64,000 bases of DNA from Pseudomonadota bacterium (GTDB lineage Bacteria; Pseudomonadota; Gammaproteobacteria; Acidiferrobacterales; UBA6901): the NCBI GenBank assembly GCA_021778035.1, contig JAJYCY010000008.1, forward strand, positions 612-64,611, given 5' to 3'. This document shows positions 7,095-64,000 of the stretch, piece by piece. The notes beneath the pieces were generated by a model. The model had not been told where the DNA came from, searched no databases, and saw nothing but the letters and a program-made list of their open reading frames with translations. How positions within the stretch are numbered: position 1 is the first letter of the stretch; each line of letters starts with the position of its first letter. A program made the position numbers and the translations under genes.

Positions 7095-7098
7095 TGCC

Positions 7099-10013: not shown

Positions 10014-10024
10014 GGCCAACCGCC

Positions 10025-10852: not shown

Positions 10853-10922
10853 CGGTGCGCCGCCCGCCACGCTGTGTCGCATCGCAGGGGCACGCGGTCC
10901 GGCTGGCCACCACCCGTGGTGC

Positions 10923-13681: not shown

Positions 13682-13996
13682 GCGCACGCGGTGGGACCGG
13701 ATCATGCCACCCGCACGGATGGCGCTGTCATTCCGCACCGCGGCAGCAGCGTGATACGACCATCGCAACCTGGAACCGTCTGCCTGGGTGCGGGAAAAGC
13801 AAGATCCGGATTGTAGGCAGTCATGTCCGGTGCCGATAATGTGCTGCAGCAGACAGGACCCCGGGCGGCGGGCTGAACGAATCGCCCGTCCCGTGATTGC
13901 CCTGCCCGGACGTGTCCGCTGCCCCGGTACTGCACTTGATCCGGCAGGGTTTCCACGACGGGAGCCGCGGATTCCAGGCTGACAGGCACGTATGAA

Positions 13997-14824
13997 ATGA
14001 CCGACTACGAACGCATTACTGAAGCGATATCCTTCATATCCAGTCACGTTACTGCGCAACCACGACTGGAAGAAATCGCCGACCACGTTCATCTGAGCCC
14101 GTTTCATTTCCAGCGCCTGTTCAGCCGCTGGGCCGGGATCACGCCCAAACGATTTCTCGAGGTACTGACGGTGGAGCATGCGAAGGCACTGCTGGACGGA
14201 TCCGGATCGCTGCTGGAGGTCTCCGAAGAGATCGGATTGAGCAGCAGTTCGCGCCTGCACGAACACTTTGTCCACCTGGAAGCGGTTACGCCGGGGGAAT
14301 ACCGGTCGAGGGGGGACGGCCTGGTGATCGAATATGGCGTGCATGACACGCCGTTCGGTGCAGCGCTCGTGGCGGTTACCGCGCGCGGCATCTGCGATCT
14401 CGCATTCCTGCCGGGACAGGAGACCGGTGATCACCTTGCCCGCATCCGTGCGCGCTGGCCGGGTGCAGAGATCCGTGCACATCAGGCCCGCACCCGGTCC
14501 CCCATTGATGCACTTTTTGGCAAGCCGAGAATTTGGGACCGGCCCCTGTCGCTGTATGTGTCGGGTACAAATTTCCAGACCCGGGTCTGGGGCGCCCTGC
14601 TGTCCATTCCGCCTGGCAGCGTTGTCAGCTATGCCCAGGTCGCTACGGCGATCGGCCATCCCGGAGCAGCGAGAGCGGTAGGTGCGGCGGTCGGTGCCAA
14701 TACAGTCGCCTTTCTCATACCCTGCCACCGCGTGATCTGCCAGGACGGAACGCTCGGGGGTTATCGGTGGGGAGTCATGCGCAAACGCGCCATGCTTGCG
14801 TGGGAAGCGGCACGTTGCCGGTGA
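13997..14824 (+). CDS. AraC-type HTH domain fused to methylated-DNA-protein-cysteine methyltransferase (Ada/Ogt-like)
   Basis: The N-terminal half has the AraC HTH (LEEIADHVHLSPFHFQRLFSRWAGITPKRFL). The C-terminal half has the MGMT active site LIPCHRV. Confidence 0.85.
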   Translation: MTDYERITEAISFISSHVTAQPRLEEIADHVHLSPFHFQRLFSRWAGITPKRFLEVLTVEHAKALLDGSGSLLEVSEEIGLSSSSRLHEHFVHLEAVTPGEYRSRGDGLVIEYGVHDTPFGAALVAVTARGICDLAFLPGQETGDHLARIRARWPGAEIRAHQARTRSPIDALFGKPRIWDRPLSLYVSGTNFQTRVWGALLSIPPGSVVSYAQVATAIGHPGAARAVGAAVGANTVAFLIPCHRVICQDGTLGGYRWGVMRKRAMLAWEAARCR

Positions 14825-14925
14825 GGCCACGCAGGCAGGTTTCCCGGGCAGGCGGGGTCCTCCGTTGCGGGTAAAACAATTGTTTGATACATTCGTTTGA
14901 CTGCTTTATTCCCCAACCTTCCGAG

Positions 14926-15624
14926 ATGACAACACCCATGAACGGTCTGCCGGATCGACCGCAACCGGATACCCGCCAGCGGCTGCTCGAAGCTGCCTCG
15001 CGGATGTTCGTCGAGCAGGGGTTTGGCGCCACCAAGGTGCGCGATATCGTTGCGCGCGCCGGTGCCAACATCGCGGCCGTCAATTACCATTTCGGTACCA
15101 AGGAAGGACTGTATGCGGCGGTGATCCGGCACCATTCGGCACAAGCCATTGAAGAGTTATCCCTCCAGGACCGTGCCGCCGCCGGACGCACGCCCGCGGC
15201 GCGTCTGAGGGACCATGTCCGCACCTTTCTGCAACGGCTGCTCGTGGATACTCCCCAGTTCACCCTGAGCAAGCTCATCGCCCGGGAAATAGTCGAACCG
15301 ACAGCGGCGTTCGAGCTGATCATCGAGAGGTTCGTGTGGCCGCAGTACCGCGCACTGCATGCAATCGTCCGCATGGTGGCGGGAGACGGAGCGAGCGAGG
15401 AGACTGTGCGCCGCTGTTGCCTGAGCGTCGTCGGACAGTGCATCTACTACCAGTTCGCGCGCCAGGTCGTGGCGCACCTCGATCCCGGTTTTGGGTACGC
15501 ATCGGCTGACATCGAACGCCTGGCCGACCATATCGTTGCATTCTCCCTTGGCGGCATACAGCAGTCGGCGCAGGCGTGTGCCGCAGCGCGGAAATCACGT
15601 TCAGAGAGCGGTGACGCGTCATGA
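14926..15624 (+). CDS. TetR-family transcriptional regulator
   Basis: TetR HTH: RQRLLEAASRMFVEQGFGATKVRDIVARAGANIAAVNYHFGTKEGLY. ATG 14926 is preferred to the TTG at 14884. The stop overlaps the next gene's start (ATGA at 15621-15624). Confidence 0.85.
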   Translation: MTTPMNGLPDRPQPDTRQRLLEAASRMFVEQGFGATKVRDIVARAGANIAAVNYHFGTKEGLYAAVIRHHSAQAIEELSLQDRAAAGRTPAARLRDHVRTFLQRLLVDTPQFTLSKLIAREIVEPTAAFELIIERFVWPQYRALHAIVRMVAGDGASEETVRRCCLSVVGQCIYYQFARQVVAHLDPGFGYASADIERLADHIVAFSLGGIQQSAQACAAARKSRSESGDAS

Positions 15625-17117
15625 CCGGCGCCGTCGCCGCGCGCCGCCGGATTGCGGGCCTGGCACTTGTGGCCGTGGTTGCCGTTTCCGCCGGGTGCGC
15701 GCTGGCTCCCTACCACAGGCTCAAACGGCTGCCGGGCGCTGCGTCCTATCCAGTGGGCCGGAGCGTGAAGCAGGCGCTGGCATCGGACGGGTTCCGCCGC
15801 GGCGGATGGCCCGAGCGGGACTGGTGGAAGGAGTTCGGGGATGCGCAGCTCGATTCCCTGGTCGCTCAGGCGCTTGCGCATAATCCGGGTATTGATATCG
15901 CGCGGTCGCGGCTGCGGCTGGCGCGTGACGAGGTCGCGGTGGCCCGCGCCGGGCTGTATCCCGATATCGGTGCCAGCGCCTCGGTGATCCGGGAGAAGTT
16001 CAGCGCCAACGGCCTGTATCCGCCGCCGTTCGGCGGCGCTACCTATAACCAGGGCCAGCTTTCCCTCGACTTCGGATACGACCTGGACCTGTGGGGCAGG
16101 GTGCGCGATGAAATGCGCGCCCGCGTGGGCGAGGCGAAAGCAGCCGCGGCACAGGCCGCGGAAGCCCGGCTGGTCATCACAACCGGCGTGGCGAGCGCCT
16201 ACTTTGCGCTTCAGGGAGACCTTGCGCGGCTTCATGTCACGCAGCAAAGCCTCGCCCAGCACCAGGCTTTCGAGCACCTCGTCAGGTTGCGCGCCGCAGG
16301 CGGGCTTGAGACGCAGCTGGCTGTCAGGCAGGCGCAGGCGGATGTGGCGTCCGTGGAAGCGGATCTCATCAGGCTGCGCAATGTCGTTGCGGGCGACCGG
16401 CGTGCGCTTGCTGCGCTGATTGGCGAGGGACCCGATGCGGCGACCGCGATCCAGCCCCCATCCAGCCATTTTGACCGGCCATTTCCGGTTCCGGCCGGAC
16501 TGCCGGTTGATCTGCTGGCGCGCCGTCCCGACATCATGGTGCGCAAATGGCAGGTCGAGGCGGCCGCCGAAGAGGTGGGAGCCGCCCGTGCCGGGTTCTA
16601 TCCGAACATCAGTCTCACCGGACAGATCGGCAAGCAGAGCCTGTACCTCGGCAAGCTGCTCGATCCGGCCAGCGATTTTGCGCTTTTCGGACCGGCGATA
16701 CACCTGCCGATTTTCGAGGGCGGACGTCTGCGTGCCACGCTCCGCGCACGCTACGTGCAGTATGACATTGCCGTCGCCAGATACCGCCAAACGCTGATCG
16801 CTGCATCGCGCAGCGTGGCTGATGGGCTGGCTGCGCTGGAATCCGTCACGCAGGAGCTCCGGAAACAGGGCCAGGCACTCCAGGCAAGCGAGGATGCACG
16901 CCGCATCGCAATGCTTCGCTACCGGTCTGGCCTGACCGACTACCTTACGGTGCTGCTGGTGCAGCAGGAAGTGTTGCAGCAGCGCGACATCGAGGCCTCG
17001 CTGCGCACACAGCGTATGCAGGCGGTGCTGAATCTGATCCGGGCATTGGGCGGAGGCTACGGGGATGGACGCAGGATGCCGCTTCCTTCGCAGAAAACGG
17101 GAGACAGTCATGAGTGA
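15621..17117 (+). CDS. Efflux outer-membrane factor lipoprotein (NodT/OprM family)
   Basis: Lipobox AVSAGC. Two OEP repeats. First structural gene of the efflux operon. Confidence 0.9.
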   Translation: MTGAVAARRRIAGLALVAVVAVSAGCALAPYHRLKRLPGAASYPVGRSVKQALASDGFRRGGWPERDWWKEFGDAQLDSLVAQALAHNPGIDIARSRLRLARDEVAVARAGLYPDIGASASVIREKFSANGLYPPPFGGATYNQGQLSLDFGYDLDLWGRVRDEMRARVGEAKAAAAQAAEARLVITTGVASAYFALQGDLARLHVTQQSLAQHQAFEHLVRLRAAGGLETQLAVRQAQADVASVEADLIRLRNVVAGDRRALAALIGEGPDAATAIQPPSSHFDRPFPVPAGLPVDLLARRPDIMVRKWQVEAAAEEVGAARAGFYPNISLTGQIGKQSLYLGKLLDPASDFALFGPAIHLPIFEGGRLRATLRARYVQYDIAVARYRQTLIAASRSVADGLAALESVTQELRKQGQALQASEDARRIAMLRYRSGLTDYLTVLLVQQEVLQQRDIEASLRTQRMQAVLNLIRALGGGYGDGRRMPLPSQKTGDSHE

Positions 17118-18315
17118 ACGTGCCGACGGTAATCCGCAGCCGGCCTCCGCGGCCGCAGGCAATGGCCGGCGCCGGCGCCTGCTTCTGCGGCTCGCGGCGG
17201 TATTCATCCTGCTGGCGGCCGGCTATGCGGCATACTGGCTGCTGATCGGCCAGTATGCGGAAACGACCGATGATGCCTACGTTTCCGGCAATGTTATCGG
17301 TGTCAGTCCGCAGGTGGCGGGTACAGTGGTGGCGATCGACGCTGACGCCACGGATCTGGTGCGGCGCGGCCAGCCGCTGGTGGAACTGGACGATACCGAC
17401 ACGCGCATCGCGCTGCGGCAGGCGGAGGCAAATCTTGCCCAGACCGTGCGCGAGGTGCGTCAGATGTTCGACAACGTCGCGCGCCTGAGGGCGGTGGTCA
17501 CCCTGCGCGAGGCCGATCTTGCGCGTGCCCGGGATGACCTGGCGCGGCGGCGCACGCTCATCGCCGCCGATGCCGTGTCACGGGAGGATTACGAACATGC
17601 CAGCACCGCCTATCAGGCGGCGCAGGCGGCGCTGCGTGTTTCACGCCAGGAGCTGAAGGCGGCGCGTGCCCTGGTGGCGGGTTCCACGGTCGAGCATCAT
17701 CCGCTGGTCGAGGAAGCCGAGGCCAGGCTGCGCCAGGCCTATGTCGCATGGAGGCGGCACGTGGTACCTGCGCCGGTGACGGGCTACGTAGCCAAGCGCG
17801 GCGTGCAGCTCGGCGAGCGTGTCGCGCCAGGCATGTTTCTGATGGCGGTCGTGCCGCTCGATGAGCTGTGGGTCAATGCCAATTTCAAGGAAAATCAGCT
17901 GTCGGACATACGCCTGGGCCAGCCGGTAACGATGACGTCCGATCTTTATGGCAATTCGGTAACGTATCGCGGCAGGGTGCTCGGAATTGGTGCGGGAACC
18001 GGCAGCGCATTCGAGCTTCTGCCCCCCCAGAACGCGAGCGGCAACTGGATTAAGATCATCCAGCGCGTACCTGTGCGCATCAGCATCAGACCAAAGGAGC
18101 TCTCGGGACATCCGCTGCGCGTCGGGCTGTCGATGCGGGTATCGGTAGATACCCACAACCGCTCCGGAAAGGTGCTTGCGCGCACGTCGACCGATCAGGT
18201 GCTCTACCATACCCCGGTCTACACCGGTTCCACCGCCGGTGCTGCAGCGCTGATCCGCCGCATCATTCTGGCCAACGACCCGGCCGCCCGTGCGGCCGGA
18301 ACGCTGCTGCACTGA
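17110..18315 (+). CDS. emrA: HlyD/EmrA-family membrane fusion protein
   Basis: Trimmed to ATG 17110 (MSERADGNPQ...), an 8-nt overlap with the upstream gene, with SD GGGAGA. Single TM anchor, coiled-coil region, and EmrA-like motif YAETTDDAYVSGNV. Confidence 0.9.
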   Translation: MSERADGNPQPASAAAGNGRRRRLLLRLAAVFILLAAGYAAYWLLIGQYAETTDDAYVSGNVIGVSPQVAGTVVAIDADATDLVRRGQPLVELDDTDTRIALRQAEANLAQTVREVRQMFDNVARLRAVVTLREADLARARDDLARRRTLIAADAVSREDYEHASTAYQAAQAALRVSRQELKAARALVAGSTVEHHPLVEEAEARLRQAYVAWRRHVVPAPVTGYVAKRGVQLGERVAPGMFLMAVVPLDELWVNANFKENQLSDIRLGQPVTMTSDLYGNSVTYRGRVLGIGAGTGSAFELLPPQNASGNWIKIIQRVPVRISIRPKELSGHPLRVGLSMRVSVDTHNRSGKVLARTSTDQVLYHTPVYTGSTAGAAALIRRIILANDPAARAAGTLLH

Positions 18316-36219: not shown

Positions 36220-37215
36220 ATGCCGATCATCGAACAGGATTCATGGCGTACGCAGTACTTCGAGGGAGTCGACTGTCCGGACGACATCGTCATTCCGACC
36301 GATGACGAATATGCCTACCGGCTGTATCCGCACTTCCGCTGGATCTACAACAAGCTGCTCATCTGCGAGACGCAGAACCTGGAGCACGCGCCGCACGGGG
36401 TCGCTCCGCAGCGGTTTCCGGTATTCAGCAAGCCAGTGTACAACCTGCGTGGAATGGGCGTGGGCAGCCGCGTCATCGCCTCGCGCGAGGAATACGAACA
36501 CGTGCAGCAGCCTGGGCACATGTGGATGCCGTTGCTTGATGGCGAGCATGTAAGCAGCGACGTCGCACTCGTTGACGGCGAGCCGGTGTGGTGGCGCCAC
36601 GTGCTGGGGCAGGCGCTTGGCGATGGCGTGTTCGATTACTGGACTGTCCTTGCCGAACGCCGCCCCGGCATCGAGCTATACTGCGGCAACTGGCTGCGCC
36701 GTCACCTCCCAGGGTACAGCGGATGCGTCAATCTCGAGACCATCGGTGGAACGATCATCGAGGCCCACCTGCGGTTTGCTGACCAGTGGCCTGACCTCTA
36801 CGGCAACGGCTGGATCGAAGCGGTGGTCAGTCTGTACGCGCAGGGCGTTTGGAGTTTTGCCGGGCGCGGCTGCCGGACCGGCTACAGCGTAGTCCTGTCC
36901 GGACCGCCCGGCCTGACGCTTCCGCGGTTCGACCGCGGTGCGGTGCCTGGACTGCTTGCCGGTCCGGAAATCTCGAGTATCCAGATAACGTTTGATGAAG
37001 GCCGTCTGGCAGCCGGTCATGCCATGCCTCCCGGAGGTCCGCGGCTGGCGGTCGTGAACTGTTGGGATCTCGGCGCGGGCTTTGCCGTCCGTGAGCGGCT
37101 TGCCGAGATGATGGCCCTTCCGCCTTCGACCAGGAAAGGTACGCCGCTGTGCGCGCCTGGTGCGGATGCGGATCGTGGCCGTGTTCCTGGGTCCGCCGTA
37201 TCAGGGAGGGACTGA
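36220..37215 (+). CDS. Conserved hypothetical protein, possible ATP-grasp fold
   Basis: 331-aa ORF with GC3-rich codons and a GAGG SD 8 nt upstream. Segments FPVFSKPVYNLRGMGVGSRVI, GHMWMPLLDGEHVSSD and VNLETIGGTIIEAHLRF resemble ATP-grasp lysine/Gly-rich/Mg-site elements. The stop at 37213-37215 abuts the next gene's ATG at 37217. Confidence 0.55.
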   Translation: MPIIEQDSWRTQYFEGVDCPDDIVIPTDDEYAYRLYPHFRWIYNKLLICETQNLEHAPHGVAPQRFPVFSKPVYNLRGMGVGSRVIASREEYEHVQQPGHMWMPLLDGEHVSSDVALVDGEPVWWRHVLGQALGDGVFDYWTVLAERRPGIELYCGNWLRRHLPGYSGCVNLETIGGTIIEAHLRFADQWPDLYGNGWIEAVVSLYAQGVWSFAGRGCRTGYSVVLSGPPGLTLPRFDRGAVPGLLAGPEISSIQITFDEGRLAAGHAMPPGGPRLAVVNCWDLGAGFAVRERLAEMMALPPSTRKGTPLCAPGADADRGRVPGSAVSGRD

Positions 37216-39719: not shown

Positions 39720-39748
39720 TTGCCCCGGATCGGCACTGATTCTATACT
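39720..39748 (+). promoter_or_regulatory. Predicted sigma70-type promoter for the AAA+/VWA/orphan operon
   Basis: TTGCCC (39720-39725), a 17-nt spacer, then TATACT (39743-39748), about 60 nt upstream of ATG 39810. Confidence 0.4.
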
Positions 39749-39809
39749 GGACCAGTTTCGTAGGCCCGGCGGCATCTCGCGGGCACAGTCATGGAATCAC
39801 GGGGTAGGC

Positions 39810-40856
39810 ATGCGTCCTTTGCACTTGTTTTCCATTCTGGACCGGGAATTTACCAGCACGCGGGAAGGTCACCATACACCAGTAATGCTATGGGGTCCTC
39901 CAGGTGTCGGAAAATCCCAGATCGTTGCGCAGGTTGCCCAGCGCCACCGCATTCCGGTGGTCGATATCCGGCTATCGCAGATGGAGCCAACCGATCTGCG
40001 CGGCATACCGTTCCGGGTCAATGATCTGGTTGAGTGGGCGGTGCCCGCGATGCTGCCGGACGCCACGCGCCATGGCAGTGCGGGCATCCTGTTTCTCGAC
40101 GAGATCACGTCAGCTGCGCCGACTGTTTCGGCAGCCGCATACCAGCTTATTCTCGACAGGCGCCTCGGCGCCTACCGGGTTCCCGACGGCTGGGCGATAT
40201 TCGCGGCCGGCAATCGCCAGGGAGACCGGGGCGTCACTTACAGCATGCCGGCGCCGCTTGCGAACCGCTTCTCGCATTTCGAAGTGGAGTCGCATCTGGA
40301 CGACTGGGTGACGTGGGCTTACGCCAGCGGAATCGATGAACGCGTGATTGCGTTCCTGCGGTTCCGGCCGGAGCTGTTGTTCGATTTCGACCCGGCTCAT
40401 AACCCGGTTGCATTTCCGAGCCCCCGTTCCTGGGAGTTTGCGCACCGTGCATTGCACAAGTTCGGGGACCGGCCGGAGCTGCTGCGCGGCGCGCTGCAGG
40501 CATGCATTGGTCCGGCAGCGGCCATCGAGCTTCAGGCGTTCATCGACAACCTGGATAATCTGCCTGACATCGATGCCATCATCGGCGGGGAAACCGTTCA
40601 GGTACCGCGCGAGACGGATCTCCAGTATGCAGTCGCCAGCGCTCTCGTTGGCCGGGCACTGCGTGTCCGCAACAGCGCCGACGAGAGCCGGGTCTACGGC
40701 CACATCCTCGACTACGCATCGCGCTTTCCACAGCGTGAAATGGGCGTGATGCTCGTGTCGGACATGCAGCGGGCGGTGGGACGCAAACTGTTTGCGCTGC
40801 CGCAGTTCGGCAGCTGGGCGAAGCAGATCGCGGATGTCATGCTGTTTGACATGTGA
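39810..40856 (+). CDS. MoxR/CobS-like AAA+ ATPase
   Basis: Trimmed to ATG 39810. Walker A GPPGVGKS (39894-39917). Walker B ILFLDEIT. Also AAGNRQGDRG and PLANRF. About 348 aa. Confidence 0.85.
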   Translation: MRPLHLFSILDREFTSTREGHHTPVMLWGPPGVGKSQIVAQVAQRHRIPVVDIRLSQMEPTDLRGIPFRVNDLVEWAVPAMLPDATRHGSAGILFLDEITSAAPTVSAAAYQLILDRRLGAYRVPDGWAIFAAGNRQGDRGVTYSMPAPLANRFSHFEVESHLDDWVTWAYASGIDERVIAFLRFRPELLFDFDPAHNPVAFPSPRSWEFAHRALHKFGDRPELLRGALQACIGPAAAIELQAFIDNLDNLPDIDAIIGGETVQVPRETDLQYAVASALVGRALRVRNSADESRVYGHILDYASRFPQREMGVMLVSDMQRAVGRKLFALPQFGSWAKQIADVMLFDM

Positions 40857-42100
40857 CTGCGATGCCGGCGGCAAATGACATTGAAACCAAGCTGGCTGCG
40901 GCGCGTGCGCGGCTTATCCTCGACAAGCCATTTCTCGGGGCGCTGGTACTGCGCCTGCCGGTCATTGCTGCTGATTCGGGGTGGTGCAGGACCACGGCGA
41001 CTGATGCCCGGGCCTTCTATTACAACAGCGAATATATCCGCGCCCTGAGCCTGGAGCAGACCCAGTTCGTGCTTGCGCACGAAGCGCTGCACTGTGCCCT
41101 TTCCCATTTCGTGCGCCGGCAGCACCGGGTAAAGCACCGCTGGGATCTTGCCTGTGACTACGCCGTGAATCCGCTGCTTGTGAAAGACGGTCTGACGCCA
41201 CCGCCCGGCGCCATGTCGTTTGACTGTTACGAAGGGATGACGGCCGAAGAGATCTATCCCTGCATTGAGGGAAATGATGAACAGGAGCCGATCGACCAGC
41301 ATATCTATGATGAGCCCGACAGTCGCGGCGATGGCAGATCCGCCGACGGACGCGCGGATCAGGGAGAAGGGAGCAGCCGGTCCGGTGACGCTCCGACTGA
41401 CGGCGGCAGCGCAAGCGAGTCCGGGGCCGGCAGCGACGGGGCTTCGATGCCCGAGCCCCTGAGCGAGGCGGAACGCGAAAAGATGGGTGTGCAGTGGCGC
41501 CAGCGTCTGGCCGGTGCTGCACAGCAGGCGATGCAGGCCGGAAAACTCACCGCATCGATGGCGCGCGTTGTTGACCACCTGCTTCAGCCGCAGCTTCCCT
41601 GGCGCATGATGCTCGCAAGGTACATGACCGCCACGGCCCGGGATGACTACAGCTTCACCAGGCCGTCGCGGCGGGAGGGGGCGGCAATCCTTCCGAGCCT
41701 GCGCAGCACCCAGATCGAACTCGCGGTCGTGCTCGATACCAGCGGATCGATCAGCGACAGCGAGATGCGCGAATTTCTGGCGGAGGTCAATTCGATAAAG
41801 GGGCAGATGCGCGCGCGAGTCGCGCTGCTCGCCTGCGACGACGCGCTCAATCCGCAATGCCCGTGGCGCTACGAGCCGTGGGAGGAGCTGGTATTGCCGC
41901 AGTCTCTGGAGGGTGGTGGCGGAACAAGCTTCGTCCCGCCTTTTGACTGGCTGAAGCTGCAGGATCGCCAGCCGGACCTGGTTCTCTATTTTACCGATGC
42001 CGAGGGAAAGTTTCCTGGCGAGATGCCGGTGTTTCCGGTGATCTGGCTGGTCAAGGGGAAAGCCCCGGTACCCTGGGGACAGAGGATCCAGCTCAACTAG
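40853..42100 (+). CDS. VWA-domain protein with N-terminal HExxH metallopeptidase-like domain (DUF2201-like)
   Basis: The GTG at 40853 overlaps the upstream stop (ATGTGA); an alternative ATG lies at 40862. HEALH at 41078-41092. Acidic D/G/S-rich linker (DEPDSRGDGRSADGRADQGEGSSRSGDAPTDGGSASESGAGSDG). MIDAS DTSGS at 41735-41749. Confidence 0.8.
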   Translation: MTAMPAANDIETKLAAARARLILDKPFLGALVLRLPVIAADSGWCRTTATDARAFYYNSEYIRALSLEQTQFVLAHEALHCALSHFVRRQHRVKHRWDLACDYAVNPLLVKDGLTPPPGAMSFDCYEGMTAEEIYPCIEGNDEQEPIDQHIYDEPDSRGDGRSADGRADQGEGSSRSGDAPTDGGSASESGAGSDGASMPEPLSEAEREKMGVQWRQRLAGAAQQAMQAGKLTASMARVVDHLLQPQLPWRMMLARYMTATARDDYSFTRPSRREGAAILPSLRSTQIELAVVLDTSGSISDSEMREFLAEVNSIKGQMRARVALLACDDALNPQCPWRYEPWEELVLPQSLEGGGGTSFVPPFDWLKLQDRQPDLVLYFTDAEGKFPGEMPVFPVIWLVKGKAPVPWGQRIQLN

Positions 42101-42138
42101 GAGTTCCGGCGGGTCGGTCTGCACCGCCGGGCAACGTC

Positions 42139-43266
42139 ATGCAACTGAGTGATGAAGACCACCTGCGCCTGAGTGTACTGCTCGCCAACCCGATCGAAGC
42201 AATCCGCGTTGACGAGCAGAACATGACCGTATACGGGCTTTATGGCCAGCAGGAAGCGAAGGTCAGGCTGAACCCGACGGGGCGCCCCGAGCAGTACCTG
42301 CGCTGCGTGCGCGAGCTGCTGTCCGGACATGCGCTTGGATCGCCGGGCGGTTACCCGGCGTTCCTGCAGCGCTGGACACGGATGGGCCAGGCCCGGGACG
42401 CGCGGCTGGCAGAACTTCTCATGCTGGGAGAACCGGAGGCGGTGGTGGCCGTTGCCGCTGCCAGCGGTCTGACCGATGAACTTGCCCGCCGCGCCTGGTG
42501 GGTTCTGCCTACCCCGGAAATTGCCCGCTGCATGCTGGCGCGCGAATGCGTGGTGCAGGGTGCCATGGGAAAGGTGCTCGCCGAGTATCTGGTGGAATAT
42601 CTGCCATTCGAGACCGAGCCATCGGCGATCGTTGCAACGGTGCGTCTGGTGCTGCAGCCCGGCCTGGTTGACGATGTGACGCGACGCAGGATCTGGGCGA
42701 GGGGTCATGGCAAGAACGTCTATTACCTCGGTTTCCTGGAAGCCACTCCCGATGTGCTTCCCGAACAGGCGCCAGCGCGTGGCGACATCGGACAGATACG
42801 GGAAATGCTGGATCCGCTGGCACAGGACGGCAATCCGTACGCATTGCATCTGCTGCGGGTGTTCAGTCAGCCCGGACAGAGTTTCATGGTTGTCTCGGAA
42901 CGCATCCTGCGCAGGCCTGCCAGCCAGGAAGCCGCGATCGCTGTCATGAACGTCATCGGCAGCTACTTCAGGGATTCGCAGCAGATCGATGAGCTGCCGC
43001 GCGAGATGGCCGTGGCCATCGACCGTGCACAGATGCAATACCGGCATGCGGCCGGCGGGCCGCTCGCGGAACTTGTGGTGGCGGCGCCGGCACTCGAACG
43101 GGAAATCATCGCGCTGCTGGTACTGTCGCAGGTGAGCGAAACCCTGCTGAATCCGATATTTTCGCACACTACCGCGGTCGGTTCCGTCATGGCTAAAAAG
43201 CTGCAGCCGGTAGTTGGCCCCATTCTCGATCAGTACGCGGTCCTGTGCGCGAGCTCCGGGGCCTAG
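42139..43266 (+). CDS. Hypothetical 375-aa soluble, predicted all-alpha protein (orphan; third gene of the AAA+/VWA operon)
   Basis: Uninterrupted ORF with GC3-rich codons, on the same strand 38 nt after the VWA gene. No TM segment, signal peptide or catalytic motif recognised (MQLSDEDHLRLSVLLANPIEAIRVDEQNMTVYGLYG...). Confidence 0.6.
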   Translation: MQLSDEDHLRLSVLLANPIEAIRVDEQNMTVYGLYGQQEAKVRLNPTGRPEQYLRCVRELLSGHALGSPGGYPAFLQRWTRMGQARDARLAELLMLGEPEAVVAVAAASGLTDELARRAWWVLPTPEIARCMLARECVVQGAMGKVLAEYLVEYLPFETEPSAIVATVRLVLQPGLVDDVTRRRIWARGHGKNVYYLGFLEATPDVLPEQAPARGDIGQIREMLDPLAQDGNPYALHLLRVFSQPGQSFMVVSERILRRPASQEAAIAVMNVIGSYFRDSQQIDELPREMAVAIDRAQMQYRHAAGGPLAELVVAAPALEREIIALLVLSQVSETLLNPIFSHTTAVGSVMAKKLQPVVGPILDQYAVLCASSGA

Positions 43267-43268
43267 GC

Positions 43269-44162
43269 CTAGCTGCCGCTTTCTTTGCCTGGGCTGGCCA
43301 GGCAGGCGGCCAGACCCGTCCGCAGGTCCGGATATAGCAGTTGCACACCCAGTTCCTCGATCATCCTGCGGTTGCTGATGCGCCGGGACTCATCGATATA
43401 GGAAAGCAGATCGGCGCTGAGAAAGCGCCCGGCCTCGCTGCGGTTCACCACCGGGGGACGCTGCAGACCCAGGCAGTCCGCCACGCTGTTGAAGTATTCC
43501 GTCATGGTCCCTGGCCTTCCGTCGCTCGCATTATATATGGTATCCGCCTGTCCACGCTCGCCTGCTGCCACGCAGGCGCGGGCCAGATCGTCGGCATGGA
43601 TGCGGTTTGAAAAGCCGCACTCGGATTCCCGCACCACCGGACGGCGTGCGCGGACGGCATCGAGCGGAAGACGTCCCGGTCCGTATATGCCGGGAACGCG
43701 CAGGATGATGACTGCAACACCATACCTCCTGCCCCATGCACGCAGCGCGTTTTCTGCATCCAGCCGTCGCCGGCCCCTGGGGGTCTTCGGGTCAACCGCG
43801 GCGTGCTCGTCGACCCAGGCTCCGTGGCAGTCACCGTAGACGCCCGTGGTGCTGAGATACACAGTCGTCCCGGGAGCCGGTTTTCGCGATAAAGCATCCA
43901 GGAAGGCGTGCATGCGGGGATCGGTCTGCCCTGCCGGGGGAGGCGGGGCAAGGTAGTAGACCAGCTGGCCGGCAACATCCAGACCGGCCAGAGACTCTGG
44001 CTGGTCCAGATCGCCGGATACCGGCTCGATGCCCGCCGCCCGCAGACGCGCTGCGGCTGCGGCGCTCCGTGCCAGCGCGGTCACCGTTAACCCCCGGGCC
44101 TGCCACAGCGCGGCAACCCGCAGACCGATGTCTCCGCACCCGATGACTGTCACGCCGTTCAT
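43269..44162 (-). CDS. NAD(P)-dependent epimerase/dehydratase-family (SDR) oxidoreductase
   Basis: N-terminal Rossmann motif VTVIGCGDIGLRVA. 297 aa. Convergent with the orphan gene, with stops 2 nt apart. Confidence 0.8.
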   Translation of the reverse strand: MNGVTVIGCGDIGLRVAALWQARGLTVTALARSAAAAARLRAAGIEPVSGDLDQPESLAGLDVAGQLVYYLAPPPPAGQTDPRMHAFLDALSRKPAPGTTVYLSTTGVYGDCHGAWVDEHAAVDPKTPRGRRRLDAENALRAWGRRYGVAVIILRVPGIYGPGRLPLDAVRARRPVVRESECGFSNRIHADDLARACVAAGERGQADTIYNASDGRPGTMTEYFNSVADCLGLQRPPVVNRSEAGRFLSADLLSYIDESRRISNRRMIEELGVQLLYPDLRTGLAACLASPGKESGS

Positions 44163-44309
44163 GCAATCGCTGTCTGTCGTCGCCGAAGCCGCTGCAATAG
44201 GGTGAGCGTATCATCAAGCGGCCCGCAGGCGGAATGGCGCGCCGCTGAGTCCCGGTTCCGGGAATGTGGCATCATTACCGCTGCACACGCGCAGTCGCCG
44301 GGGGGAGAC

Positions 44310-46862
44310 ATGCCGCAGATCGAAGAGCCTACTCGCCCGACCGGGCTACCCCTGGAGGAGGCGGTGGCGCGGCTCGCCGCGGATGGTTACAACGAGTTGC
44401 CATCGGCGCGCCGTCGTAGCGTCCTTCAGATTTCCCTCGGTGTGGCGCGCGAACCGATGTTCGTGCTGCTGCTTGCCTGCGGCACCACCTATCTGGTGCT
44501 CGGTGATGTACGTGAAGCGGTCATGCTCCTGTTTTTCGTCGGAGTCGTGATCGGCATAACGCTCTACCAGGAGGATAAAACAGAACACGCGCTCGACGCG
44601 CTGCGCAACCTGTCGAGTCCGCGCGCCGTCGTCATCCGCGCCGGCGAGGCGCAGCGTATACCGGGCCGCGAGGTCGTGCGCGGAGACATTCTGGTGCTCG
44701 CGGAAGGCGATCGTATCGCGGCCGACGCGTGCCTGCTCTCCGCCATCAGCTTCGAGACTGATGAATCCCTGCTTACCGGAGAGTCGCTTCCGGTACGCAA
44801 GCGCGAACCGGATCCGGCTGCCGCCCGGCCCGCCTGCTCCGGCGCGAACGATGATTCCTGTGTCTATGCGGGCACCATGGTCGTGCGCGGCAATGCCATC
44901 GCCGAAGTGCAGGCGGTAGGAACGGGCACGCGGGTCGGCCGCATCGGCCGGGCCATGCAGACGCTTGAGCAGCAGGACACCCCGCTGCAGCGAGAAATGG
45001 CACGGCTGGTGCGGATCGTTGCCGTGCTGGGCGCAGTCCTCTGCGTCACGGTGGTCGTCGCATACGGACTAAGCCGCGGAGACTGGTTGCACGGGCTGCT
45101 CTCCGGTCTCGCGATGGCGATGGCGGTTCTTCCGGAAGAATTTCCGGTGGTGCTCGCCGTATTTTTGGCTCTGGGTGCCTGGCGTATTTCCCGCCGCGGG
45201 GTCCTTACGCGCCGGATGGCGGCTGTGGAACTGCTCGGGGCCGCAACGGTGCTGTGTGTCGACAAGACCGGCACGCTTACCCAGAACCGCATGTCGGTCA
45301 GAAAGCTCTGGACCGCGAGCGGCAGCTGCGAACTGGACACCCCGCATGCGGCCCTGGCAGAGCCGTTTCATGAACTGGTCGAGTACGCGATCCTTGCAAG
45401 CCAGCGTGACCCGTTTGATCCGATGGAACAGGCGATGCGGGGACTGGGAACTGCGATGCTGGGCGGAACCGAACATCTGCATGATGACTGGGAACTGGTG
45501 CGCGAGTACCCCCTCTCGAAGGAACTGCTGGCCCTGTCACACGTCTGGCGTGCGCGTGACGACAGCCGCTACACGGTCGCGGCCAAGGGTGCACCGGAAG
45601 CGATTGCAGATCTCTGTCATCTTGGCGAAGCGCGCACGCGCAGGCTCATGGATGACGTGATCGGGCTGGCAGCGGAGGGCCTGCGGGTGATCGCGGTGGC
45701 GAAAGCCCAGTTCCGGAGGCCGGATCTTCCCAGTGGGCAGCACGATTATGAATTCCAGCTGGTTGGGCTGGTCGGCCTCGCAGACCCGGTGCGTGCGTCC
45801 GTACCGGCGGCGGTAGCTGCGTGCCGCGAGGCCGGCATACGCATCATCATGATCACCGGTGACTATCCGGTAACGGCCCGCAGTGTCGCCCGGCAGATCG
45901 GTCTCGTTCCGGCGGACAGGGTCATCAGTGGAACGGAGCTTGACCGGATGGGGGATCCGGACCTCGAGACGCAGGTCCGCAACGTCGGCGTGTTCGCGCG
46001 TGTGTCTCCGGAACAGAAGCTGCGCCTGGTGCAGGCGCTCAGGGCGAACGGCGAAATCGTTGCGATGACCGGAGACGGAGTCAATGACGGTCCGGCGCTC
46101 AAGGCTGCACACATCGGCGTGGCGATGGGCGGGCACGGCACCGATGTGGCGCGCGAGGCGGCGGGTCTGGTGCTGGTGGATGATGACTTTTCCTCTCTCG
46201 TCCACGCGGTAGGTACCGGTCGCCGTATTTCGGACAACCTGCGCAAGGCGATGGCGTACATCATCGCAGTGCACGTGCCGATCGCCGGTCTGTCCCTGAT
46301 CCCGGTCCTGCTCGGATGGTCACCGCTGCTGATGCCGGTGCACATCGTGTTTCTGCAGCTTGTGATCGATCCTACCTGTTCCGTGGTATTTGAAGCCCAG
46401 GATGCCGAAGCCGACGTGATGCGGCGACCGCCGCGCGATCCCGGTGCAGGGCTGTTCGGCCGCCGGGCAATCGCGCTCAGTGTACTCCAGGGATCAGTGG
46501 TGCTGGCAGTGGTGGTCGGCATGACCGGGTTCGCGAGGCATCAGGGGTTGGGTGAAGAGCAGATACGTACACTGGGTTTTGTCACGCTGGTCATATCGAA
46601 TCTGGCGCTGATTCTTGCCAATCTCTCCTGGTCGCGGCCGGCACTCGCCGCTCTGCGGTCATCCGGCGCCGCGCTCCGGGGCGTCACCGCCGGGACCCTG
46701 GCCATCCTCGCCGCCGTAGTCTACGTTCCGGAGCTGAACAGCCTGTTCCGGCTCGGGCCGCTCGGAGGCCCTTATCTGCTGGCGGCGGCCGCCGCCGGCG
46801 TAGCCAGCGTGCTCTGGTTCGAGCTTTACAAGTGGTGGCGCCGGCCAAAACCTGTCTCCTAG
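44310..46862 (+). CDS. Cation-transporting P-type ATPase (type II-like)
   Basis: Trimmed to ATG 44310 with SD GGGGGGAG. N-terminal cation-ATPase domain LEEAVARLAADGYNELP. Phosphorylation site DKTGTLT. Hinge TGDGVNDGPALK. Confidence 0.9.
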   Translation: MPQIEEPTRPTGLPLEEAVARLAADGYNELPSARRRSVLQISLGVAREPMFVLLLACGTTYLVLGDVREAVMLLFFVGVVIGITLYQEDKTEHALDALRNLSSPRAVVIRAGEAQRIPGREVVRGDILVLAEGDRIAADACLLSAISFETDESLLTGESLPVRKREPDPAAARPACSGANDDSCVYAGTMVVRGNAIAEVQAVGTGTRVGRIGRAMQTLEQQDTPLQREMARLVRIVAVLGAVLCVTVVVAYGLSRGDWLHGLLSGLAMAMAVLPEEFPVVLAVFLALGAWRISRRGVLTRRMAAVELLGAATVLCVDKTGTLTQNRMSVRKLWTASGSCELDTPHAALAEPFHELVEYAILASQRDPFDPMEQAMRGLGTAMLGGTEHLHDDWELVREYPLSKELLALSHVWRARDDSRYTVAAKGAPEAIADLCHLGEARTRRLMDDVIGLAAEGLRVIAVAKAQFRRPDLPSGQHDYEFQLVGLVGLADPVRASVPAAVAACREAGIRIIMITGDYPVTARSVARQIGLVPADRVISGTELDRMGDPDLETQVRNVGVFARVSPEQKLRLVQALRANGEIVAMTGDGVNDGPALKAAHIGVAMGGHGTDVAREAAGLVLVDDDFSSLVHAVGTGRRISDNLRKAMAYIIAVHVPIAGLSLIPVLLGWSPLLMPVHIVFLQLVIDPTCSVVFEAQDAEADVMRRPPRDPGAGLFGRRAIALSVLQGSVVLAVVVGMTGFARHQGLGEEQIRTLGFVTLVISNLALILANLSWSRPALAALRSSGAALRGVTAGTLAILAAVVYVPELNSLFRLGPLGGPYLLAAAAAGVASVLWFELYKWWRRPKPVS

Positions 46863-47091: not shown

Positions 47092-48129
47092 ATGTCATTT
47101 CTGGACAGCTGGAACGAAGAACAGCAGTCATCGTATCTGTACCGGGTGATGGCCCAGGTCGAAGCCAATCCGGCCAGGTCGGCGCTTTTTGAAAACCTTG
47201 CGCGCGCGGCGGATGCCCAGGCGCAGATCTGGATGGAGCGGATACGGGGCAGTGGTGGTTCTCCACCCCCGGCCTTCCGGCCTTCGTTCAGGGCCCGTCT
47301 GACAGCGTATCTGGTCCGTCGCATAGGACCACGCCGGCTGCGTCCGGTGCTGGCGGCGCTCAAGGTGCGCGGGATGTCGATCTACACTTCATCAGCGCCG
47401 GTTTCCGGTCATCCCATGCCGGTTTCCGTCGAGGATATCGGGCACCGGCATAAAGGCGTCAGCGGCGGCAAGCTCCGGGCAGCAGTATTCGGGATCAATG
47501 ACGGACTGGTTTCGAACACCAGCCTGATTATGGGCGTGGCCGGCGCTGCCGCCAGTGGCAGATTCATTCTTCTGTCCGGCATTGCCGGGCTGCTCGCCGG
47601 CGCGTTCTCTATGGCCGCGGGGGAATATGTCTCGATGCGCTCCCAGCGCGAGATGTACGAATACCAGATCGGTCTCGAACGCGAGGAGCTGGAGGAGTAT
47701 CCGGAAGAAGAGGCCGAAGAGCTGGCGCTGATCTACAGCGCCCGCGGCCTGTCGCTTGATGAAGCGCGCCGCGTAGCGCGCGAAATGGTCAGCAACCGCG
47801 AGCATGCCATCGATGCGCTGGCGCGCGAGGAGCTCGGACTGAATCCCGATGACCTCGGTTCTCCGGTGGGAGCAGCTGTATGGTCATTTGCGGCGTTTGC
47901 CGTCGGCAGCGTGGTACCCCTGGTGCCGTTCCTGCTCGGGGCCGGCAGCCATGCCCTGTGGACCAGCGCCGCGCTGGCGGCAGTGTCTCTGTTCGCCGTC
48001 GGCACGCTGCTCAGCCTGTTTACCGGGCGCCATGCCTGGCGAAGCGGGCTGCGCATGGTGATCCTGGGCGCGGCCGCTGCTGCCAGCACTTTCGTGATCG
48101 GAAAAGCACTGGGGGTGGCCCTGTCGTGA
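47092..48129 (+). CDS. VIT1/CCC1-family iron/manganese transporter with N-terminal ferritin-like helical domain
   Basis: The C-terminal VIT domain begins LRAAVFGINDGLVSNTSLIMGVAGA. The N-terminal ~100 aa are helical (EEQQSSYLYRVMAQVE...ADAQAQIWMERI). A TATAAT lies at 47039-47044 upstream. Confidence 0.8.
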   Translation: MSFLDSWNEEQQSSYLYRVMAQVEANPARSALFENLARAADAQAQIWMERIRGSGGSPPPAFRPSFRARLTAYLVRRIGPRRLRPVLAALKVRGMSIYTSSAPVSGHPMPVSVEDIGHRHKGVSGGKLRAAVFGINDGLVSNTSLIMGVAGAAASGRFILLSGIAGLLAGAFSMAAGEYVSMRSQREMYEYQIGLEREELEEYPEEEAEELALIYSARGLSLDEARRVAREMVSNREHAIDALAREELGLNPDDLGSPVGAAVWSFAAFAVGSVVPLVPFLLGAGSHALWTSAALAAVSLFAVGTLLSLFTGRHAWRSGLRMVILGAAAAASTFVIGKALGVALS

Positions 48130-58518: not shown

Positions 58519-58984
58519 GCCGCGCACCCCCCCGAAACCGCGTGTCGAAGTGCAGTACGTGTTTCGGCGGGATGGAGTTCCGGCGAAGGCGGTGATCACA
58601 AAGTGGGCACGTGCGGCGCTGGAGCACGGCGGGAACATGGAACTGGTGGTGCGCATTGTCGGCGAGGGCGAGAGCGCAGACCTTAACCGGCGGTACCGGC
58701 GCAGGACCGGACCGACCAACGTGCTGTCATTTTCCTATGCCGGCGCGGAGGAAAGGCAGATGGCCCCAGGCCTGCTCGGCGATATTGTCATCTGCGCACC
58801 GGTGGTCGCTCGCGAGGCGCGCGAACGCGGTGTGGATCCGCGTGCCCATTGGGCGCATATGGTGGTTCACGGTATAATGCATCTGCGAGGCTATGACCAC
58901 ATTCACGCGCGCGATGCCAGGATCATGGAACAGATGGAATCACGGATTATGGGGCGGCTGGGTTTTGCGGACCCATACGCCTGA
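58490..58984 (+). CDS. ybeY: rRNA maturation endoribonuclease YbeY
   Basis: Zinc motif HGIMHLRGYDH. ATG 58490 (SD GAGG) is chosen; a GTG at 58550 is an alternative start. Confidence 0.9.
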   Translation: MSRSAISKTEPRTPPKPRVEVQYVFRRDGVPAKAVITKWARAALEHGGNMELVVRIVGEGESADLNRRYRRRTGPTNVLSFSYAGAEERQMAPGLLGDIVICAPVVAREARERGVDPRAHWAHMVVHGIMHLRGYDHIHARDARIMEQMESRIMGRLGFADPYA

Positions 58985-59002
58985 TATCTGCGTGGTCGCG
59001 CG

Positions 59003-59890
59003 ATGAGCCAGAACAGCGGTGAACATGGTGGCGACGGCCAGGCGCGCTCCTTCCTGGAGCGTCTGGCTACGGCGCTGCTGCGCGAACCTGGCACGCGCCA
59101 GCAGCTCGTCGAGATATTGCGCGAAGCGCAGGCCCGGGACCTGATGGACCGGGATGCGCTCGACATGATCGAGGGCGTGCTTCAGGTTTCGGAAATGCAG
59201 GTGCGCGACATCATGGTGCCGCGCGCGCAGATGTATGTCGTCGACAAGAATTCGGCGCCCGAGGAGTATCTTCCGCGGGTTATCGAGACCGGCCATTCGC
59301 GCTTCCCGGTGATAGACGGCGACAAGGACAAAGTGGCCGGGATTCTTCTTGCCAAGGATCTGCTGCGATATTTCCATGGCGGCAAGCGGCGGAAATCCGG
59401 GTTCAGTCTGAATGACTACCTGCGTCCGGCGGTGTTTGTGCCCGAAAGCAAACGCCTGAACGTGCTGCTGCGGGATTTCCGCGCGAACCGCAATCATATG
59501 GCGGTCGTTGTGGATGAGTACGGAGGGGTGTCGGGTCTGGTCACGATCGAGGATGTGCTCGAGCAGATCGTCGGCGAAATCAAGGACGAATATGATATCG
59601 ACGCCGATGACGCCATGATCATTGACCGGGGCCCGGACGAGTATGTCGTCAAGGCGCTGGCTACGCTGGATGAGGCGAACGCCCGCCTGGGCACGAGCTT
59701 CACGAGCGAAGGCATTGATACGGTCGGCGGTCTTGTGGTCACGACACTGGGTCATCTCCCGCGGCGCGGCGAGAAGATCGATATCGGCGGGCTGCGGTTC
59801 GAGGTACTGCGTGCGGACAGCCGCCAGGTGCACCTGCTGAAGGTGACCCGGACAGGTGCGCGGCAGGGCGCCGACGCATCCGGTTTCTAG
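59003..59890 (+). CDS. corC: CorC/HlyC-family magnesium/cobalt efflux-associated protein (CBS pair + CorC_HlyC domain)
   Basis: ...MIEGVLQVSEMQVRDIMVPRAQM...HMAVVVDEYGGVSGLVTIEDVLEQIVGEI. Confidence 0.9.
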   Translation: MSQNSGEHGGDGQARSFLERLATALLREPGTRQQLVEILREAQARDLMDRDALDMIEGVLQVSEMQVRDIMVPRAQMYVVDKNSAPEEYLPRVIETGHSRFPVIDGDKDKVAGILLAKDLLRYFHGGKRRKSGFSLNDYLRPAVFVPESKRLNVLLRDFRANRNHMAVVVDEYGGVSGLVTIEDVLEQIVGEIKDEYDIDADDAMIIDRGPDEYVVKALATLDEANARLGTSFTSEGIDTVGGLVVTTLGHLPRRGEKIDIGGLRFEVLRADSRQVHLLKVTRTGARQGADASGF

Positions 59891-61593: not shown

Positions 61594-62130
61594 ATGAACA
61601 GAAAGGCATTGGCTGCCATCCTGGCGGCAGCAGGCATTGCTATGGTTTCGCCTGCCCATGCAGCCGGCAGCCTGAAGATCGGGTTTGTCGACATGCGGCA
61701 GGTGATCCTCGAGAGCAAGGCGGGGAAGGTACACCAGGCCGAGATGGAGAAGCTCATCAACGAGCGGCAGGGTCCGCTCGATCAGGAAAAGAAGAAGTTG
61801 CAGGCGCTGCGCGCGGATTTCCTGAAGGAGCGTCTTACCCTCACGGATGCCCAGAAGGCGGCAAAGCAGAAACAGTTCCAGGCCGAACTGCAGAAATACC
61901 AGGCCATGGCTGGTGAGGCCCAGAATGCGCTGCGTGCGAAGGACAACCAATTCATGCAGCAGTCAATCGGGCTGATCAAGACGATCATTGCCAAGGTGGC
62001 GCGCACGGATCATCTGGGCCTGGTATTCGAGAAATCACAGCTGCTGGTGCTGTATTCCGAACCCGGCATGGACATCACGCAGCAGGTGATGCAGCAGTAC
62101 AATGCAAGGGGTCTGCCCGCTGCGAAGTGA
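61594..62130 (+). CDS. OmpH/Skp-family periplasmic chaperone
   Basis: Trimmed to ATG 61594. Signal peptide MNRKALAAILAAAGIAMVSPAHA. KIGFVDMRQVILESKAGK, followed by a long Lys/Gln/Glu-rich coiled region. Confidence 0.8.
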   Translation: MNRKALAAILAAAGIAMVSPAHAAGSLKIGFVDMRQVILESKAGKVHQAEMEKLINERQGPLDQEKKKLQALRADFLKERLTLTDAQKAAKQKQFQAELQKYQAMAGEAQNALRAKDNQFMQQSIGLIKTIIAKVARTDHLGLVFEKSQLLVLYSEPGMDITQQVMQQYNARGLPAAK

Positions 62131-62142
62131 CCGGAAGCTGAT

Positions 62143-62171
62143 GGCTGCTGCGGGCTTTAGCCGCAGCAGCC
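62143..62171 (+). terminator. Perfect 11-bp stem hairpin after the OmpH-like gene (terminator-like, no U-tract)
   Basis: GGCTGCTGCGG (62143-62153), a 7-nt loop, then CCGCAGCAGCC (62161-62171), 13 nt after the stop. It lacks a downstream T-run. Confidence 0.35.
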
Positions 62172-62253
62172 GGCCCGTCGACCGCAGGGGCATATTCGCA
62201 GCCGCGCGGTTCTGCCGGCCTGCTTTCCTGTCCCGTGGTCCTGTGTCCCGTGA

Positions 62254-64000
<1,747 letters not shown>

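Follow-up and report, generated by a model that had tools for sequence, protein, structure and literature searches.

The locus examined in this study is a compact set of three same-strand genes from a Pseudomonadota bacterium (Gammaproteobacteria; Acidiferrobacterales; UBA6901), located on contig JAJYCY010000008.1 of assembly GCA_021778035.1, from which a stretch of 64,000 nucleotides (nt; positions 612 to 64,611 of the forward strand), hereafter termed the window, was analysed. Gene 1 encodes a MoxR-class AAA+ ATPase, gene 2 a DUF2201 protein in which a zincin-like domain, an acidic linker and a von Willebrand factor A (VWA) domain follow one another, while gene 3 is, as judged by full-length homology, predicted to encode DsrS, an accessory protein of Dsr-type sulfur oxidation. 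An earlier note, made from the sequence of this DNA alone, had described three open reading frames (ORFs) with a short spacer in front of the third, as well as Walker A, Walker B, HExxH, acidic linker and metal ion-dependent adhesion site (MIDAS) motifs, and both the ORF listing and direct reading of the sequence bear out this layout (Table 1). The profile hidden Markov model searches that the note had called for returned AAA_5 for gene 1, DUF2201_N and DUF2201 for gene 2, and none for gene 3.

Concerning gene 1, the match to the Pfam model AAA_5 (7e-11; 42.7 bits against a cut-off of 22) includes intact Walker A and Walker B motifs and establishes membership of this family, and phrog_1297 is matched nearly end to end (1e-95). 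The ATG start at 39810 is confirmed by a conserved MRP N-terminus, and the mean identity to 42 orthologues is 79%. Since its nearest solved sequences in the PDB are the AAA domains of midasin, NorQ and CbbQ, gene 1 is placed in the MoxR/dynein-related branch of the AAA+ ATPases. Motif conservation in genes 1 and 2 was measured on 43-45 locus orthologues, and the catalytic motifs were found to be at least 95% conserved.

Gene 2 exceeds the gathering score of both Pfam models of the DUF2201 family, namely DUF2201_N (PF13203, 'putative metallopeptidase'; 2.7e-48, 165.4 bits, cut-off 23.2) and DUF2201 (PF09967, 'VWA-like'; 5e-24, 85.2 bits, cut-off 26.4), and it matches phrog_1314 at 4e-80. Its AlphaFold2 model, with a predicted local distance difference test (pLDDT) score of 73, begins with a helical domain, passes through a disordered stretch and ends in an alpha/beta domain. 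Residues H76, E77, H80 and H85, which would make up the putative zinc site of the N-terminal domain, are invariant in the alignment as well as in the 45 locus orthologues, and in a fold search of the PDB this half of the protein matched the minimal zincin selecase with a probability of 0.92-0.95 but an E value of 0.06-0.09; sequence and model together indicate that the domain possibly has peptidase activity. The linker (pLDDT below 50 at residues 154-194) is unconserved and differs in length among orthologues. The C-terminal half matches VWA folds, i.e. the VWA2 domain of ArnB (7e-4), integrin I-domains, the VWA domain of CLCA1 and, at rank 32, NorD. In the model this half thus adopts a VWA fold bearing a complete set of MIDAS residues, T358 and D382 being invariant like those of the DxSGS motif, and metal binding is predicted. 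Pfam and fold searches therefore support the earlier note in proposing that a MoxR-class ATPase is paired with a VWA protein bearing a zincin-like domain. CLCA1 likewise has a HExxH metalloprotease domain followed by a VWA/MIDAS domain in a single chain, although it is eukaryotic, secreted and without an AAA+ partner, and its sequence relationship to gene 2 is undetectable outside the VWA fold.

Gene 3 had been regarded as an orphan without a recognisable motif. The second part of this description holds, as its product gave no hit in Pfam, NCBIfam, PADLOC, PHROGs or PDB sequences, while the first does not: a search of 5.8 billion proteins yielded 4377 homologues. The closest named relative is DsrS of Sulfurifustis variabilis (55% identity over 98% of the length, 5e-117), and the homologues to which genome authors or NCBI gave the name DsrS include those of S. 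variabilis, Sulfuricella sp. T08 and Sulfuricaulis, with Beggiatoa sp. PS and Thioploca ingrica being added by a second DsrS query. In a profile search of 1.84 billion cluster representatives the family amounted to 522 clusters at 50% identity, all of them single-domain proteins of approximately 345-395 amino acids (aa) without fusions, one cluster including Candidatus (Ca.) Thioglobus. Given the small number of clusters and the fact that the named members (Sulfuricella, Sulfuricaulis, Sulfurifustis, Thiohalomonas, Thiohalobacter, Thioploca, Beggiatoa and Ca. Thioglobus) are known sulfur oxidisers, the DsrS family is a narrow one, associated with sulfur oxidisers. The AlphaFold2 model of gene 3 (pLDDT 90.7) consists of an N-terminal helix and a three-stranded sheet, followed by an all-alpha repeat of about sixteen helices, and has no fold match in the PDB (best E 0.39) or among the viral models of BFVD (best E 0.43). 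The most conserved stretch of the family, here termed the signature loop, coincides with the region modelled at lowest confidence (pLDDT 64-77) and may on that ground be a loop that is flexible and mediates interactions.

Table 1. Positions of the three genes, their motifs and other features in the window (position 1 is the first nucleotide of the window).
Feature	Position	Strand	Basis or remark
Promoter-like string TTGCCC-17-TATACT	39720-39748	+	9/12 matches in scan
Gene 1, MoxR-class AAA+ ATPase (AAA_5), 348 aa	39810-40856	+	ORF listing and direct reading
Walker A GPPGVGKS, gene 1 residues 29-36	39894-39917	+	Read from sequence; at least 95% conserved in orthologues
Walker B ILFLDEIT, gene 1	40086-40109	+	Read from sequence; LFLDEI at least 95% conserved
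Gene 1 stop / gene 2 start overlap ATGTGA	40851-40856	+	Gene 2 GTG at 40853
Gene 2, DUF2201 protein (zincin-like domain, acidic linker, VWA), 415 aa	40853-42100	+	
HEALHCALSH, HExxH and downstream His, putative zinc site	41078-41107 (HEALH 41078-41092)	+	
Asp/Gly/Ser-rich acidic linker, gene 2	41312-41434	+	Predicted disordered
MIDAS DTSGS (DxSGS), gene 2	41735-41749	+	D295, S297, G298, S299 invariant
MIDAS residue T358, gene 2	41924-41926	+	Invariant
MIDAS residue D382, gene 2	41996-41998	+	Invariant
Spacer between genes 2 and 3, 38 nt	42101-42138	+	Holds GC hairpin CCGGCGG...CCGCCGG
Gene 3, predicted DsrS, 375 aa	42139-43266	+	Homology to named DsrS proteins
DsrS signature loop GSPGGYPxFLxRWTRMGQ, residues 67-84	42337-42390	+	Most conserved stretch of the family
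Metal-transport genes	1307-2629, 9156-10013, 44202-46862, 47092-48129	-, +, +, +	

The identity of gene 3 bears directly on the reading preferred in the earlier note, according to which the triad is a self-contained module with an orphan client, free-standing and unrelated to any known system. The absence of Pfam, NCBIfam and PDB matches for gene 3 is in keeping with that reading, as is the absence of known client genes from the housekeeping surroundings, which was correctly noted. However, gene 3 is predicted to be DsrS of the dsr sulfur-oxidation system, and dsrS forms part of the dsr operon in Chromatiaceae, whereby this reading is largely refuted and retains a very small probability. The function of DsrS, a cytoplasmic protein, is termed unresolved in the literature. 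In Allochromatium vinosum dsrS is the last gene of dsrABEFHCMKLJOPNRS, DsrN and DsrR being encoded ahead of it in Chromatiaceae, while genome papers often list dsrS as 'located elsewhere in the genome', and that of S. variabilis gives it merely as lying outside the dsr cluster. On author and NCBI naming of close relatives, DsrS of A. vinosum would be of the same family as gene 3; there dsrS follows dsrN-dsrR in the dsr cluster, whereas here it follows the AAA+/VWA pair outside any dsr cluster. The two proteins are similar in size, with 375 aa here and 41 kDa in A. vinosum. A dsrS deletion is reported to make the oxidation of stored sulfur slower and to have an effect on how dsr expression is controlled post-transcriptionally.

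The linkage of the pair with dsrS was surveyed from both sides. The scan from the dsrS side, which used one genome per species (GTDB), found at least 556 relatives, of which the best 80 loci were taken and 76 had enough upstream sequence; the scan from the VWA side covered metagenome contigs, and 74 of the best 80 loci were informative. As the loci examined reach 10 kb, the counts describe local adjacency. The pair was located directly upstream of dsrS and on the same strand in 50 of the 76 informative dsrS loci, with identities to the orthologues of 72-92% for gene 1 and 57-77% for gene 2, and dsrS was located directly downstream of the pair in 44 of the 74 informative loci found with the VWA protein, adjacency thus being approximately 60-65% from either direction. 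The triad loci span Betaproteobacteria (Sulfuricella, Gallionellaceae) and Gammaproteobacteria (Acidiferrobacterales, Thiohalomonas, Granulosicoccaceae), and in the cultured S. variabilis, for which a complete genome exists, the genes for the AAA protein (358 aa), the DUF2201 protein (431 aa, SVA_2920) and DsrS (SVA_2921) stand in a row.

Around the triad nothing is conserved beyond its three genes. The 48 triad loci with at least 2.5 kb on each side represent between 5 and 19 different flanking contexts, the lower figure being obtained when loci are joined by either shared flank and the higher when both flanks must match; a first clustering of the flanks by single-linkage tblastx chained nearly all loci together and was redone using these stricter criteria. 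The gene dsrS is the sole recurrent partner gene of the pair, whose ATPase, MIDAS and zincin motifs are all strongly conserved. The triad is hence a module of three genes that is conserved among Gamma- and Betaproteobacteria with Dsr-type sulfur oxidation, its linkage being strong, not obligatory, and this tight and recurrent association agrees with the suggestion of the earlier note that gene 3 is the best candidate for a partner, adaptor or client of the pair. Literature searches (DUF2201; dsrS in combination with von Willebrand) returned no paper describing a link between the pair and DsrS.

Approximately half of the spacers between the VWA gene and dsrS are 50 nt or less. The translational coupling that had been read from the ATGTGA overlap of genes 1 and 2 is a more local matter, for the overlap is present here and in the four closest relatives only, the spacing in other orthologous loci being 5 to approximately 800 nt. 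An alternative in-frame ATG for gene 2 occurs at 40862, and the first 10 residues of the protein are not conserved. Some of the intergenic regions deserve description in their own right. In locus L049 a 108-aa ORF (MIIELLKLGFAVKQ...YFADILVENKIICELKAAQ...; 8318-8644) sits between the ATPase and VWA genes and breaks their tight spacing; we take it to resemble small GxxExxY-type nuclease-like proteins that behave as selfish insertions. Similar gaps of approximately 550 nt separate the two genes in L016, L038, L065 and L022. In S. variabilis (AP014936.1; L081, 7131-8000) 870 nt with no called gene and no convincing ORF lie between the DUF2201 gene and dsrS, and the same gap recurs in L082; it could house a separate dsrS promoter, an RNA or a decayed gene.

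MoxR-class ATPases act together with VWA partners, whose MIDAS binds an acidic residue of the client and so couples ATP hydrolysis to remodelling or cofactor insertion. Cases in point are CbbQ-CbbO (RuBisCO), NorQ-NorD (NO reductase), CoxD-CoxE (CO dehydrogenase) and, for the assembly of ribosomes, midasin. MoxR/VWA pairs that serve one particular enzyme system are therefore of a known kind, and the pair studied here resembles CbbQ-CbbO and NorQ-NorD in uniting the genes of a MoxR-class AAA_5 ATPase and a VWA/MIDAS adaptor. It differs from them in several respects: the similarity of gene 1 to CbbQ and NorQ is confined to the AAA core (E ~1e-3) and gene 1 has no CbbQ_C domain, while gene 2 belongs to a different VWA family (DUF2201) and carries the zincin-like domain that CbbO and NorD lack. 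Family-specific Pfam hits for CbbQO, NorQD or CoxDE were absent, as were RuBisCO, nor or cox client genes in the window, and the pair accordingly does not belong to these systems.

With these precedents in mind, the following mechanism may be envisaged. Gene 1 presumably forms a hexameric ATPase ring, and gene 2 would act as its VWA partner, the MIDAS being expected to grip an acidic residue of the target as in CbbO, NorD and midasin, while the zincin-like domain would add a possible proteolytic step. DsrS, as a helical-repeat protein, would be the dedicated adaptor or substrate of this ATPase/VWA-peptidase pair, and through it the pair would act on the cytoplasmic reverse dissimilatory sulfite reductase system, either by helping to assemble or activate DsrAB, a siro(heme)amide/Fe-S enzyme, or by controlling the level of a Dsr protein. 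On balance we lean towards the general form of this proposal, in which the pair constitutes a device that uses ATP for remodelling or maturation, possibly with proteolysis, has DsrS as its adaptor or substrate and acts on the reverse-Dsr system. We put forward more tentatively, as one option among several, the specific version in which DsrS is a specificity adaptor or regulated substrate that, together with the MoxR-type ATPase and the zincin-VWA protein, matures, reactivates or proteolytically tunes reverse Dsr. It is from gene linkage that we infer the cooperation of the three proteins, the direction of the adaptor or substrate relationship and the Dsr target.

The neighbours of dsrS are informative as to what the target might be. 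Glutaredoxin and the siroheme synthase CysG are encoded downstream of dsrS in 15-19 loci, and these, in addition to DsrN and the IscA-like DsrR in Chromatiaceae, point to cofactor (siro(heme)amide/Fe-S) and redox maturation of DsrAB. Where dsrS is located away from the pair, its neighbours are all concerned with these DsrAB cofactors. The proximity of CysG, and that of the siroheme amidase DsrN in Chromatiaceae, would also be expected if the pair functioned in the manner of Mg-chelatase I/D or CobS/CobT and, with DsrS, inserted or exchanged the metal or the siroheme/siroamide of DsrAB. AAA+/VWA pairs drive class I chelatases, and gene 1 shows a weak match (3e-10) to the CobS-type phage family phrog_249. 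Nevertheless, gene 1 resembles chelatase subunits less than it does midasin, NorQ and CbbQ, a large porphyrin-binding subunit of the BchH/CobN type was found neither in the window nor in 167 related loci, so that membership of the class I chelatases is not supported, and the zincin domain has no place in a chelatase. DsrS, moreover, has no conserved Cys or His cluster in the alignment of its homologues and no fold relative. A chelatase-like function is for these reasons considered improbable.

A number of observations weigh against the preferred reading, in which the pair acts through DsrS on the reverse-Dsr system, and merit consideration together. (i) Twenty-six of the 76 dsrS loci are without the pair, as is T. 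ingrica, where dsrS stands by itself, and approximately 30 of the 74 pair loci are without dsrS. (ii) The same syntenic frame may hold the full triad, just the pair or just dsrS, one frame being represented by p190-Sel1-AAA-VWA-DsrS-Grx-CysG, p190-Sel1-DsrS-Grx-CysG and p190-AAA-VWA, and another by Hsp15-AAA-VWA-DsrS-YbaK/HDOD and Hsp15-AAA-VWA-YbaK/HDOD. (iii) Related pairs without DsrS occur in phages and plasmids. (iv) No dsr gene is present anywhere in the 64-kb window, and gene 3 was accordingly not found in or next to a dsr cluster within it. (v) The inclusion of A. vinosum DsrS in the family of gene 3 would depend on author or NCBI names of close relatives, no Chromatiaceae entry having been among the matches listed from the second DsrS query and the cluster look-ups. 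With regard to the fourth point, dsrS is according to genome papers commonly found outside dsr clusters, and the absence of dsr genes nearby therefore does not exclude membership of DsrS. The earlier note had named the occurrence of gene 3 homologues away from any such pair as an argument against its own reading; such homologues do exist (the 26 loci above, T. ingrica and, by the literature, Chromatiaceae), but this is the minority state.

Two groups of incomplete loci illustrate these states. The pair-less dsrS loci present a conserved block that encodes a protein of approximately 190 aa (p190), a Sel1-repeat protein (approximately 150 aa), DsrS, glutaredoxin and CysG (L020, L030, L032, L033, L041, L043, L051, L073 and others, with dsrS at approximately 10001-11130), and a TusE/DsrC-like gene is often found approximately 6 kb upstream of it; in L045, L072, L075, L076 and L112 the pair is inserted between the Sel1 and DsrS genes of this block. 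In the pair-only loci L083, L084, L085, L096, L137, L139, L150 and L161, Hsp15 (S4 domain), NUDIX, thioredoxin and HtpG are repeatedly encoded upstream, and Lon is encoded near the pair in L083; this proteostasis/redox-stress neighbourhood is confined to a few related lineages.

The incomplete frames, the stress-related neighbours of pair-only loci and the existence of homologous pairs without DsrS in N4-like phages and conjugative plasmids would all be accommodated if the synteny reflected no cooperation, the pair being a general quality-control or stress module, or a domesticated mobile-element module, with DsrS working independently. Against such an explanation, adjacency is kept in both Beta- and Gammaproteobacteria across the 5-19 changing contexts, linkage reaches a similar level from both directions, the same-strand spacers are often shorter than 50 nt, and the stress-gene neighbours are limited to a few related lineages; we hold it to be unlikely, though it is to be taken seriously. 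Three close VWA orthologues on contigs of approximately 0.3-1 Mb do not adjoin dsrS, and in neighbour-joining trees the unlinked ATPase/VWA copies form 3-4 clades nested among the linked ones, a pattern suggesting that all copies belong to one orthogroup and that linkage has been lost repeatedly.

The relatives on mobile elements were compared with the DsrS-linked pair. Gene 2 has homologues with up to 33% identity in 683 records of phages and with up to 34% in 131 records of plasmids, whereas the members of the DsrS-linked pair share at least 56% identity with one another, and the linked pair is therefore a distinct chromosomal lineage of an otherwise mobile-element-borne family. N4-like phages (Schitoviridae), jumbo phages and conjugative plasmids carry the same two families in the same order (phrog_1297 / phrog_1314). 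In the N4-like phages the ATPase and DUF2201 genes are adjacent in the replication/early region and, unlike in the triad, are not accompanied by a DsrS-like third gene; in the conjugative plasmids the DUF2201 gene lies near transfer or methyltransferase genes, again without DsrS. The DUF2201 protein of N4-like and jumbo phages is widely labelled 'HNH endonuclease', as in phage records H2, H4, H7 and H10-H12 and in phrog_1314; its content of DUF2201_N and VWA-like domains does not support this label, which is probably a propagated annotation error.

The abundance of pair relatives on phages and plasmids raises the question of a conflict or anti-phage role, in which the triad would be a MoxR-vWA defence module of the ternary type and DsrS would serve as its sensor or effector. 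Ternary MoxR-vWA conflict systems have reportedly been described, and those with a beta-propeller protein or VMAP resemble the triad in that a third component, which confers specificity, accompanies the MoxR ATPase and the vWA protein. However, gene 1 scores 20 bits against bpMoxR (PF20030), under the cut-off of 27, and does not qualify as a member, VMAP and beta-propeller domains are absent from the triad, and a conflict-system context is lacking, in that neither mobile-element nor defence-island genes occur in the window. A PADLOC search gave only P-loop-level hits for gene 1 (best 3.5e-4) and no hit for genes 2 and 3, and DsrS, which occurs in sulfur oxidisers only, is without an effector domain. 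Without PADLOC support and in view of the housekeeping context, this explanation was rejected as having hardly any likelihood.

The 'elsewhere' to which genome papers so often assign dsrS lies, for the majority of the sulfur oxidisers sampled, directly behind the genes of a MoxR-class ATPase and a zincin-VWA protein. Relative to the searchable literature, the recurrent coupling of the pair with DsrS, the zincin domain on the VWA partner and the resulting hypothesis on the function of DsrS are new. The hypothesis, that DsrS may be the adaptor or substrate of an ATP-driven remodelling or proteolysis device, is testable, and it gives a pathway of central importance to the sulfur cycle an additional candidate factor for maturation or regulation. 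If true, the pair would join the MoxR/VWA machines for RuBisCO, NO reductase and CO dehydrogenase as the fourth that serves a key chemolithotrophic enzyme, and would be the first of them to have a peptidase built in. The DsrS-linked clade is a chromosomal and physiologically anchored branch of the AAA_5/DUF2201 pairs that are widespread on phages and plasmids, and would in that event offer the first functional handle on the large AAA_5/DUF2201 family of N4-like phages and conjugative plasmids.

Two putative signals at the locus were evaluated and dropped as evidence. The string that the earlier note had proposed as a promoter exists, but a scan of 4.6 kb found 1 site against 1.0 +/- 1.0 expected from shuffled sequences, a frequency that equals chance. 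The hairpin in the spacer between genes 2 and 3 is no more stable than shuffled sequence (z = -0.65), and no terminator was called in that spacer. At the distal end of the triad, the TAG stop of dsrS (43264-43266) and the stop of a convergent SDR/epimerase gene (43269-44162, - strand) are just 2 nt apart, and an intrinsic terminator therefore cannot fit between the two transcription units (43264-43271).

The surroundings of the operon are an ordinary housekeeping chromosome, in which neither dsr nor sox genes occur. The genes upstream in the window comprise sucAB-lpd-sucCD and those for a quinone oxidoreductase, a DUF1499 protein and a PilZ protein, while those downstream encode the SDR epimerase, a P-type ATPase, VIT1, cyclopropane-fatty-acid synthase, MiaB, PhoH and Lnt. 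Long ORFs without a Pfam hit at 1e-5 are located at 7060-8616 (+), 15447-17207 (-), 13502-14830 (-), 58940-59833 (-) and 62035-63918 (-); several of these overlap equally long ORFs on the opposite strand (63% GC), which leaves their true frames ambiguous. A 331-aa ORF straight after sucD (36220-37215, +) has good coding statistics (a GC content at third codon positions of 0.74) and no Pfam match. The window additionally holds several metal-transport genes, encoding an Nramp protein, an FTR1 iron permease, a P-type cation ATPase and a VIT1-family protein, the last of which possesses an N-terminal extension of approximately 125 aa.

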